Assembly (NCBI RefSeq): GCF_009931435.1
Contig: NZ_CP043414.1
Strand: one strand, 5' to 3'
DNA: 64,000 nt
Source of the DNA: Escherichia coli
GTDB lineage: Bacteria; Pseudomonadota; Gammaproteobacteria; Enterobacterales; Enterobacteriaceae
In this document: positions 48,093 through 51,515 of the stretch, one piece after another
How positions within the stretch are numbered: position 1 is the first letter of the stretch
How the letters are laid out: each line of letters starts with the position of its first letter
Made by a program: the position numbers and the translations under genes
Notes under the pieces: model-generated
Told to the model about the DNA's origin: nothing
The model's input: the letters and a program-made list of their open reading frames with translations, nothing else
The model's database searches: none

Positions 48093-48872
48093 TTAGTAGC
48101 TGCTGGCGCTCTTACCGTCGCCGTGGCCCAGCGCTTTCAGCAAGCTTGCCAGCAGGCTGGAAGCACCAAAGCGGTAGTGACGCGCATCTGCCCAGTCAGC
48201 ACCGAAAAGTTCATCTGCAATCGCGAGATATTTCTGCGCATCTTCCGCAGTACGCACGCCGCCCGCAGGTTTGAAACCAACGGTTTTCTCTACGCCCATA
48301 TCACGGATCACTTCCATCATGATGCGCGCGCTTTCCGGCGTCGCGTTCACTGCTACTTTACCGGTAGAGGTTTTGATGAAATCAGCACCCGCTTTAATGG
48401 AGATTTCAGACGCTTTACGGATCAGCGCTTCGTCTTTCAGTTCGCCGGTTTCAATAATCACTTTCAGCAGTACGTTCGCTGCTGCGCAAGCCTCTTTACA
48501 GGCTTTCACCAGATCAAAACCAACCTGCTCGTTACCCGCCATCAGTGCACGGTACGGGAACACTACGTCAACTTCATCGGCACCGTAGGCGATTGCCGCA
48601 CGGGTTTCTGCCAGCGCGATTTCGATGTCGTCGTTACCGTGTGGGAAGTTAGTTACCGTAGCGATACGGATTTCCGGGGTGCCCTGCTCTTTCAGCGTTT
48701 TGCGAGCAATCGGGATAAAGCGAGGGTAGATACAGATAGCGGCGGTATTGCCGACCGGAGTTTTGGCCTGATGACACAGGGCGATCACTTTCTCGTCGGT
48801 ATCGTCGTCATTCAGGGTGGTCAGGTCCATCAATTTCAGTGCACGCAGGCTGCTTGCTTTCAGATCAGTCAT
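48093..48872 (-). CDS. deoC: deoxyribose-phosphate aldolase
   Basis: 259 aa [52 protein letters not shown]. Confidence 0.98.
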
Positions 48873-48916: not shown

Positions 48917-48932
48917 TGTTAGTATTCTAACA
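48917..48932. promoter_or_regulatory. DeoR operator-like palindrome upstream of deoC
   Basis: TGTTAGTATTCTAACA, near-match to the DeoR 16-bp palindrome, 45 bp upstream of the deoC start. Confidence 0.65.
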
Positions 48933-49129
48933 TCGACTCCGCAACACACTTCGATATACATCACAATTAAGGAAATCTACTTACAAAATTGCATTACTGT
49001 AATGCGATCTGGTTCAAATAATTCACTTTCAAATGAATGCGTCAGTGGTGGCAAACGCATCAGGATCAAAGTGAACATCACGAAACTTCTTACAATGGCG
49101 CATCACCTTCGGCATAAAAGGAACAGAAG

Positions 49130-50680
49130 ATGCCCACTTCTCATGAAAATGCACTGCAACAACGTTGCCAGCAAATTGTCACCAGCCCGGTACTTAGCCC
49201 GGAGCAGAAACGCCATTTTCTGGCGCTGGAAGCAGAAAACAATCTGCCTTACCCGGCGTTGCCTGCCGAAGCCCGCCGCGCGCTGGATGAAGGTGTAATC
49301 TGCGATATGTTTGAAGGTCATGCGCCGTATAAACCGCGCTATGTCTTACCCGATTACGCCCGTTTTTTGGCCAACGGTTCCGAATGGCTGGAGCTGGAAG
49401 GCGCAAAAGATCTTGATGACGCACTCTCTCTGCTGACCATTCTTTACCACCACGTTCCTTCGGTCACATCGATGCCGGTCTACCTGGGGCAACTGGATGC
49501 GTTGTTGCAACCGTATGTTAGAATTCTAACACAAAACGAGATCGATATTCGAATAAAACGTTTCTGGCGTTACCTCGACAGAACCCTGCCAGACGCCTTT
49601 ATGCACGCCAATATTGGCCCGTCTGATTCACCCATTACCCGTGCGATTTTACGCGCAGACGCAGAGCTGAAGCAGGTTTCACCGAACCTGACTTTTATCT
49701 ACGATCCTGAAATCACCCCTGATGACCTGCTGCTGGAAGTGGCGAAAAACATCTGTGAATGTAGCAAACCGCACATCGCCAACGGTCCCGTGCATGATAA
49801 AATTTTCACAAAAGGGAGCTACGGGATTGTGAGCTGTTACAACTCACTGCCGCTGGCGGGTGGTGGCAGTACGCTGGTACGCCTCAACCTGAAAGCCATT
49901 GCCGAGCGCAGCGAATCGCTGGATGACTTCTTTACGCGCACTCTACCGCACTACTGCCAACAGCAGATCGCCATCATCGATGCGCGGTGTGAATTCCTCT
50001 ATCAACAATCACACTTCTTTGAGAATAGCTTCCTGGTGAAAGAAGGGCTGATTAACCCTGAACGTTTTGTGCCAATGTTTGGCATGTACGGACTGGCAGA
50101 AGCGGTTAACTTGTTGTGTGAGAAAGAAGGAATTGCCGCACGTTACGGTAAAGAAGCCGCTGCGAATGAAGTGGGTTATCGCATTAGCGCGCAACTGGCG
50201 GAGTTTGTCGCCAATACCCCCGTGAAATATGGCTGGCAAAATCGCGCCATGCTACACGCACAGTCGGGGATAAGTTCCGATATCGGCACCACGCCGGGCG
50301 CGCGTTTGCCGTATGGCGATGAGCCAGATCCGATCACCCATCTGCAAACTGTCGCCCCGCATCATGCTTATTATTATTCCGGCATCAGCGACATTTTGAC
50401 GCTCGACGAAACCATCAAACGTAATCCGCAGGCGCTGGTACAGCTTTGCCTCGGTGCCTTTAAAGCCGGAATGCGTGAATTTACCGCCAATGTCAGCGGT
50501 AACGATCTGGTTCGCGTTACCGGTTATATGGTGCGTTTGTCGGATTTAGAAAAATATCGTGCCGAAGGTTCACGTACCAATACCACCTGGCTGGGAGAAG
50601 AAGCCGCACGCAACACTCGTATTCTGGAACGCCAGCCGCGCGTGATAAGCCATGAACAGCAGATGCGCTTTAGTCAGTAA
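49130..50680 (+). CDS. yjjI: glycyl-radical-enzyme-like protein YjjI
   Basis: 516 aa; C-terminal glycyl-radical-type motif LVRVTGYMV; followed by its cognate radical-SAM activase. Confidence 0.9.
49505..49520. promoter_or_regulatory. DeoR operator palindrome located inside the yjjI coding region
   Basis: Perfect 16-bp palindrome TGTTAGAATTCTAACA, 588 bp from the deoC-proximal site. Confidence 0.65.
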
Positions 50681-51515
50681 GATTATCCCCTTCTCCTGCG
50701 TTGACGGGCCAGGCAGTCGTCTGGCTCTGTTTTTACAGGGCTGCAATCTGCGCTGCAAAAACTGTCACAATCCGTGGACGATGGGGCGCTGTAATGATTG
50801 CGGTAAGTGCGTGCCACAGTGTCCGCATCAGGCGTTGCAGATTATTAACAGCAAAGTAGTGTGGAACGCAGCCGTCTGCGAGCAGTGTGATACCTGTCTG
50901 AAGATGTGTCCGCAACATGCCACGCCGATGGCGCAATCCATGAGCGTGGATGAGGTGCTTAGACATATCCGCAAAGCGGTGCTGTTTATCGAAGGGATAA
51001 CGGTAAGCGGCGGCGAAGCCACGACCCAGCTGCCGTTTGTGGTGGCGCTTTTTACTGCCATCAAAAACGATCCGCAACTGTGCCATCTCACCTGTCTGGT
51101 GGACAGTAACGGCATGTTGAGAGAAACCGGCTGGGAAAAATTGCTCCCGGTGTGCGACGGCGCGATGCTCGATCTCAAAGCGTGGGGAAGCGAATGTCAT
51201 CAGCAGCTAACCGGACGCGATAATCAGCAGATCAAGCGCAGCATTAGTCTGCTTGCCGAGCGCGGCAAACTGGCAGAACTGCGTTTGCTGGTAATCCCAG
51301 GCCATGTGGATTATTTGCAGCATATCGATGAGCTGGCGGCGTTTATCAAGGGACTTGGCGATGTTCCGGTACGCCTGAACGCGTTTCATGCTCACGGCGT
51401 GTATGGCGAGGCGCAAAGCTGGGCGAGCGCCACGCCGGAAGACGTTAAGCAATTGGCTGATGCGTTACGGGAGCACGGGGTGAGCCGATTAATATTTCCG
51501 GCGCTGTATTTGTGA
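50652..51515 (+). CDS. yjjW: glycyl-radical enzyme activating enzyme (radical SAM) YjjW
   Basis: 287 aa; CNLRCKNC (CxxxCxxC) radical-SAM cluster motif plus ferredoxin-like Cys clusters ([24 protein letters not shown]). Confidence 0.9.

Follow-up and report, generated by a model that had tools for sequence, protein, structure and literature searches.

Two 16-bp palindromes in the region shared by deoC and yjjI, in a 64-kb stretch of Escherichia coli DNA (the whole of which is referred to here as the window), very probably represent deoO2 and deoO1 of the known three-operator DeoR looping system of deoCABD, together with deoOE as the third operator. This assignment, made by comparison at the sequence level, follows from the identity of both palindromes with the published operators, from the 599 bp that separate them, and from the presence of a third site at the place expected for OE. 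The operators and their looping are already known, and indeed textbook material, with nothing being added here to DeoR biology; the comparative analysis described below concerns the codons of yjjI, within which two of the three sites lie. The features of the locus, with the basis of each assignment in parentheses, are as follows:

48093–48872, − strand: deoC, deoxyribose-phosphate aldolase, first gene of deoCABD (open reading frame list; Pfam DeoC PF01791, E = 5e-49; RefSeq annotation of matching E. coli DNA)
48917–48932, no strand assigned: assigned as deoO2, the DeoR operator at deoP2 (equal to the published palindrome; same in K-12)
48950–49018, − strand: deoP2 control sites, with CRP-1 (TGTGATGTATATCGAA on the − strand) at 48950–48965, the CytR region, and CRP-2 at about 49003–49018 (conserved blocks)
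49055–49096, + strand: predicted yjjI promoter, with an FNR-like half site (CGCATcaggATCAA, 49055–49068) and the −10 hexamer TACAAT (49091–49096) (conservation)
49130–50680, + strand: yjjI, YjjI-family glycyl radical enzyme of 516 aa (Pfam PF11230, E = 3e-220; RefSeq annotation)
49516–49531, no strand assigned: assigned as deoO1, a perfect DeoR palindrome (published palindrome; K-12 identity; 599 bp from O2; frozen codons)
49544–49567, − strand: region upstream of the deoP1 −10, with a weak −35 and an A/T-rich upstream stretch, of inferred function (low synonymous diversity)
49795–49810, no strand assigned: deoOE, a third, weaker DeoR operator, candidate by position (mismatch-tolerant scan; synonymous constraint)
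50652–51515: yjjW, the yjjI activase, adjoining yjjI on its 3′ side and overlapping it by 29 nt (Pfam Radical_SAM; RefSeq annotation)

The site in front of deoC, TGTTAGTATTCTAACA, was found at 48917–48932, its near edge 45 nt from the A of the deoC ATG (48872, − strand), just as had been reported in a first-pass annotation of this DNA. The perfect palindrome that this annotation placed within yjjI, TGTTAGAATTCTAACA, also exists and does lie in that gene, but at 49516–49531 rather than at 49505–49520, an error of 11 in the coordinate; the spacing, given there as 588 bp, is 599 bp from start to start. The accompanying suggestion that the spacing fits the DeoR looping arrangement of the deo promoters is strengthened by this correction, because 599 bp is the published value—that is, deoP1 and deoP2 lie 599 bp apart, and DeoR represses both via DNA looping (PMC3334521). 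The published DeoR palindromes are TGTTAGAA-TACTAACA for O2 and TGTTAGAA-TTCTAACA for O1 (PMC5326754), with which the reverse complement of 48917–48932 and the bases at 49516–49531, respectively, agree exactly. Elsewhere, the O1–O2 distance is given as ~600 bp, with OE ~300 bp further upstream of O1, loops between all sites being visible by electron microscopy and O1–O2 looping being predicted at ~72% at the native spacing (PMC8053113). The regulator gene itself, deoR, is located at ~882 kb of the K-12 chromosome (PMC8053113), as compared with ~4.617 Mb for the deo region.

Sequence comparison with E. coli K-12 MG1655 showed O1, O2, OE, and their spacings to be unchanged, with a DNA identity of ~96% over the compared 1 kb and with the substitutions scattered outside the operators. 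The K-12 sequence, identical at all three sites, is presumably the one used for the published DeoR binding and looping experiments. Of the 5426 complete E. coli genomes, 5423 contain the region. In the deo direction, each of the two main operators starts with TGT-TAGAAT and thus overlaps a promoter −10: deoO2, which reads TGTTAGAATACTAACA on the − strand, holds an extended −10 (TGT plus TAGAAT, from 48932 down to 48924), and the extended −10 of deoP1, also on the − strand, lies within O1 (TGT at 49531–49529 and TAGAAT at 49528–49523). A consensus promoter scan requiring a −35 match called neither P1 nor P2, a silence that is uninformative, because both are of the extended −10 type with a weak −35.

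When the window was scanned with TGTTAGAATTCTAACA and up to three mismatches were allowed, just two matches were returned, with 0 and 1 mismatch. Matches at this tolerance do arise in shuffled versions of the window, with a mean of 0.26 and with two or more in 4 of 100 shuffles, which lends some substance to the idea that the palindromes are chance matches without a shared function. The two sites present, however, depart from the palindrome at no position and at one, keep the published distance of 599 bp, and stand in front of deoC, and the expected number of matches with at most one mismatch was directly calculated to be ~7e-4 per 64 kb. Furthermore, the palindromes are identical in K-12 and conserved over ~77 species against a saturated synonymous background. 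Chance is refuted by this conservation and by the identity with characterised operators, and practically no credence is left for it. At a greater tolerance, with 4–5 mismatches, the palindrome also matches TGTTAGTGT(C/T)CTTACG, present in each of three tandem tRNA-Leu(CAG) genes (59531–59852, leuQPV-like) elsewhere in the window; these matches were rejected as due to chance.

The candidate third operator, OE, reads TGATAAAATTTTCACA and matches the palindrome at 12 of 16 positions. At 4 mismatches the window contains four matches, and of these it is the one found exactly 279 bp beyond O1, which places it 878 bp from O2. We take 49795–49810 to be the position given for OE in the primary deo papers (279 and 878 bp). 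OE is not a strong palindrome; it lies in frame in yjjI, where it overlaps codons 222 (third position) to 227, and it is kept as TGATAAAATTTTCACA in at least 66 of 77 deo-linked sequences and as TGATAATATTTTCACA in nine. Viewed as a CRP site (TGTGA-N6-TCACA), its TCACA half is perfect and its TGATA half poor. The site is polymorphic within E. coli: in ETEC H10407 (NC_017633.1, ~5129266–5129281), OE reads TAATAAAATTTTCACA, a change of GAT to AAT that gives D223N in YjjI. Neither the presence of OE in yjjI nor that of the whole deoP1 promoter there had been part of the first-pass annotation, which also did not recognize the locus as a well-characterised textbook system.

Constraint on the codons of yjjI was examined with orthologues obtained by a YjjI scan of 100,044 species genomes, 80 of the 295 yjjI loci being taken, from Escherichia to Proteus. 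The 80 orthologues show 71–99% amino acid identity. Outside Proteus, 74 loci had sufficient flanking DNA upstream, and in all of them yjjI and deoC stand side by side in divergent orientation, a synteny maintained from Escherichia to Edwardsiella. A codon alignment was made of the 77 deo-linked yjjI sequences, in which the synonymous background is saturated. In the yjjI frame, O1 reads taT GTT AGA ATT CTA ACA, encoding Y129 V R I L T134 (codons 129 (third position) to 134), and the usage of these codons was as follows:

Tyr129, TAT: 74 of 74
Val130, GTT: 75 of 77
Arg131, AGA: 55 of 56 Arg
Ile132, ATT: 77 of 77
Leu133, CTA: 75 of 77
Thr134, ACA: 77 of 77

The flanking codons are free, Pro128 being written with four codons (30/31/11/5) and Leu126 with six. 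Conservation of the palindrome in related genomes and codon constraint in yjjI across species had both been put forward as checks on the intragenic site; the latter was strongly positive in the 77 deo-linked sequences, and with the O1 codons near-invariant in ~77 species, the former is borne out as well. A blind scan of the whole of yjjI for synonymous entropy, made over five codons at a time and normalised per amino acid, gave a gene median of 1.05. The lowest synonymous diversity in the gene was found at OE (49793–49813; relative value 0.024) and the second lowest at O1 (49514–49531; 0.071), a permutation minimum of ≤0.08 having P = 0.0015. The third-ranked zone, 49544–49567, showed values of 0.25–0.39, below the mean of the permutation minima (0.42); this stretch upstream of the P1 −10 overlaps yjjI codons 139–146, which include the rare codons CGA (in 64 of 77 species) and ATA (in 74 of 75). 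Third positions conserved at ≥95% make up 7% of the gene, and O1 is the sole run of six. Two weaker signals were also seen. At 50012–50035 (TTCTTTGAGAATAGCTTC, YjjI FFENSF), the synonymous constraint is weak, with values of 0.33–0.41 near the mean of the permutation minima (0.42), and synonymous diversity is reduced in the last yjjI codons (50652–50680), because these overlap yjjW over 29 nt.

The few changes seen at O1 in the linked species fall mostly at operator positions 5–6, with a few at positions 4, 7, and 11, and cost at most 1–2 operator matches; most of them alter the protein, replacing Arg with Lys, Gly, or Ile, and AAA and GGA forms occur in other genera. The O1 half that forms the P1 extended −10 (ATTCTAACA) is unchanged except in two Edwardsiella species, where it reads ATTTTAACA. 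When 24 representatives of the family were aligned, the residues encoded by the O1 and OE bases proved to lie in variable stretches with gaps, beside conserved motifs, and the operators therefore sit where YjjI tolerates change. In deo-linked species, the operators would thus appear, from these alignments, to fix both the codon and the residue of yjjI.

Loci in which yjjI is not accompanied by deoC served as controls, comprising four Proteus species and two distant loci, a set that is small, related, and phylogenetically narrow. In the four Proteus species, no deoC was found within ~3 kb upstream of yjjI; the O1 position carries 6–8 mismatches with free codon choice (for example, GTG GGT GAG CTC ACC), and OE is degenerate, reading AGATGCGGTTTTTGGT. 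The two distant yjjI-yjjW loci have neither a deoC neighbour nor any such site. In all four Proteus loci, a TGTAA(A/G)AA(T/C)TGTCACA-like sequence was noticed ~77 nt beyond the yjjI match, at a place presumably belonging to yjjW; with 4 mismatches to the DeoR palindrome, it probably reflects coding conservation.

These data bear on the question of whether the codons are frozen by a need of yjjI itself, such as an mRNA hairpin formed from the palindrome or a pause at rare codons (AGA, CTA, CGA, and ATA). The palindrome could in principle form an RNA hairpin, the rare codons AGA, CTA, ACA, CGA, and ATA do cluster at 49520–49555, and synonymous constraint is by itself silent on which function is selected. 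Against this, the constrained bases are exactly those of the 16-bp palindrome, which is the published DeoR site and has a second copy, differing at one position, 599 bp off in non-coding DNA, and the second constrained patch, OE, is not a strong palindrome. The constraint is, moreover, gone in Proteus and in distant yjjI genes lacking a deoC neighbour, although the protein is conserved there, and where linked species do depart from the common codons, it is the residue that changes (R to K, G, or I), with the operator spared nearly in full. An origin of the frozen codons in yjjI itself is thus judged very unlikely. The reading of the sites as DeoR operators agrees with the earlier proposal that an operator is embedded in a coding region on the opposite strand as dual-use sequence, a proposal upheld by the in-frame position in a conserved yjjI, by the synonymous constraint, and by the loss of that constraint where deoC is not adjacent.

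Weighing against the operator assignment, O2 in the intergenic DNA is less well conserved from genus to genus than O1 inside yjjI; the O2 half ATTCTAACA is conserved across genera. Also weighing against it, O1–O2 spacings of 567 to 626 bp occur in different species, with a mode of 599–603 and a spread of 596–604, so that neither the precise distance nor the phasing is maintained. Among E. coli genomes, the exact O2 32-mer was found in 5418 of the 5426 complete ones, and the exact O1 32-mer in 4665 genomes, with a further 167 carrying a synonymous CCA flank; a variant of the O1 32-mer with a CCT flank gave no match among the E. coli genomes. O1 is thus not invariant within E. coli, which likewise weighs against the assignment: in 327 complete genomes it reads TGTTATAATTCTAACA, a change of AGA to ATA (window position 49521) that gives R131I in YjjI. 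This form, present at NZ_CP038394.1 4560322–4560421, was first seen in an O55:H7 strain, the examples listed include O157:H7, and the carriers apparently belong to the O157:H7/O55:H7 lineage. The substitution may affect how tightly DeoR binds, or may give rise to a TATAAT hexamer oriented as yjjI is. Together, these counts of exact k-mers (32–36-mers) cover 4665 + 167 + 327 = 5159 of ~5423 genomes, with ~260 differing otherwise within the 32-mer.

In the intergenic region, an alignment of 71 species showed conserved blocks at O2, at CRP-1 followed by the CytR and CRP-2 region, at GGATCAAAG (49062–49070), and at TACAAT (49091–49096), the last two standing alone as strongly conserved blocks in the half nearer to yjjI. 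The centre of CRP-1, 48957.5, fits a P2 start near 48917, as do the positions of the deoP2 CRP sites, which we take to be −40.5 and −93.5. The ATCAA half site within GGATCAAAG and the TACAAT hexamer look like a class II FNR-type promoter for yjjI, predicted here from conservation. With the coordinate shift that we assume, the FNR ChIP peak at yjjI maps to ~49037 of the window. The promoter reading fits a published list in which yjjI appears as a direct target of FNR activation and has a ChIP peak (PMC3688515). If the promoter prediction is right, P1 (start near 49516, leftward) and the yjjI promoter (start near 49103, rightward) are convergent and ~413 bp apart.

CRP ChIP-seq data for ETEC touch on both parts of the locus. 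The CRP-1 sequence is the MEME site under the yjjI/deoC CRP peak (PMC4287617), and a further peak was reported inside yjjI (5129400), 544 bp from the intergenic one (PMC4287617). This distance is close to the ~566 bp between CRP-1 and O1, and the coordinate of the peak in yjjI falls between O1 and OE (~49450–49800 of the window). A real CRP site or cross-linking through the loop could account for this peak, which is not assignable to O1 or to OE, because the reported coordinates are offset by 150–215 bp from the motifs.

Whether the sites also regulate yjjI-yjjW, by a DeoR roadblock at O1 and OE, by enclosure of the yjjI promoter in the O1–O2 loop, and by derepressed P1 acting head-on, is a separate matter; such an arrangement, which would add to the main explanation rather than replace it, would couple an FNR-dependent enzyme to deoxynucleosides. 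The geometry favours it, in that the P1 −10 (49528–49523) points left, while the conserved TACAAT (49091–49096) and the ATCAA half site point right. Moreover, yjjI is FNR-activated (PMC3688515), O1–O2 looping is predicted at ~72% in vivo (PMC8053113), and the yjjI-deoC synteny extends from Escherichia to Edwardsiella. On the other hand, a literature search found no paper naming both DeoR and yjjI, the synteny may persist for no other reason than that P1, O1, and OE would not survive a separation of the two genes, and the yjjI transcription start is a predicted one. Regulation of yjjI-yjjW by these sites is accordingly regarded as possible but not probable. Somewhat more doubtful still is the proposal that DeoR and its inducer deoxyribose-5-phosphate may, through roadblock, loop enclosure, and convergent transcription, also control the orphan enzyme pair YjjI/YjjW. 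If true, this regulatory interlock would explain the neighbourhood of yjjI and deoC from Escherichia to Edwardsiella, and could hint at a role for YjjI in anaerobic deoxynucleoside or deoxyribose metabolism.

For deoCABD itself, the three-operator system would work as described in the literature: multimeric DeoR would bind O1, O2, and OE cooperatively and loop out 599, 279, or 878 bp, such that both promoters are shut, and deoxyribose-5-phosphate would release DeoR, with P2 being also under the control of CRP and CytR. As P1, O1, and OE lie inside the divergently oriented yjjI, the same bases would serve both as promoter or operator and as codons 129–146 and 222–228. Selection on the DNA function would then fix not just codons, among them the rare AGA, CTA, CGA, and ATA, but residues as well, such as Ile132. 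To this scheme, the present analysis contributes the operator identity with K-12, the distances between the sites, their frame in yjjI, and the synonymous constraint with its disappearance without an adjacent deoC; binding, looping, and induction come from the literature.

In a literature search, no paper was found to treat the overlap of the operators with yjjI or the evolutionary footprint of this overlap. The cross-species comparison merits a record, five to six codons per site, rare ones included, being unchanged across Enterobacteriaceae and Hafniaceae, and the locus provides a clean natural test case against which methods for finding regulatory elements within bacterial genes could be calibrated. 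It also calls for caution in codon-optimising or recoding yjjI, in the course of which deoP1, O1, and OE would be lost. To a specialist, this dual-use footprint is tidy but no surprise.

Of the known systems with which the locus can be compared, the deoCABD control region of E. coli K-12 is the closest, being the same locus with the same O1, O2, and OE, the same 599 and 279 bp spacings, and the same flanking genes, and without functional difference. The convergent promoters pR and pL of phage 186 likewise face each other, as P1 and the predicted yjjI promoter would at a distance of ~413 bp; pR/pL constitute, however, a transcriptional interference module, whereas the likeness of deo/yjjI to it is one of geometry, the yjjI start being predicted. 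In lac O2, located in lacZ, and gal OI, located in galE, an operator in a coding region likewise loops to a promoter-proximal operator, and the DNA has a dual use. Those operators are, however, auxiliary only and lie in the first gene of their own operon, whereas in the case of deo a whole promoter and two operators lie in another gene, on the opposite strand. Furthermore, the intragenic deo operator O1 is the perfect palindrome of the pair and is better conserved than its intergenic counterpart.
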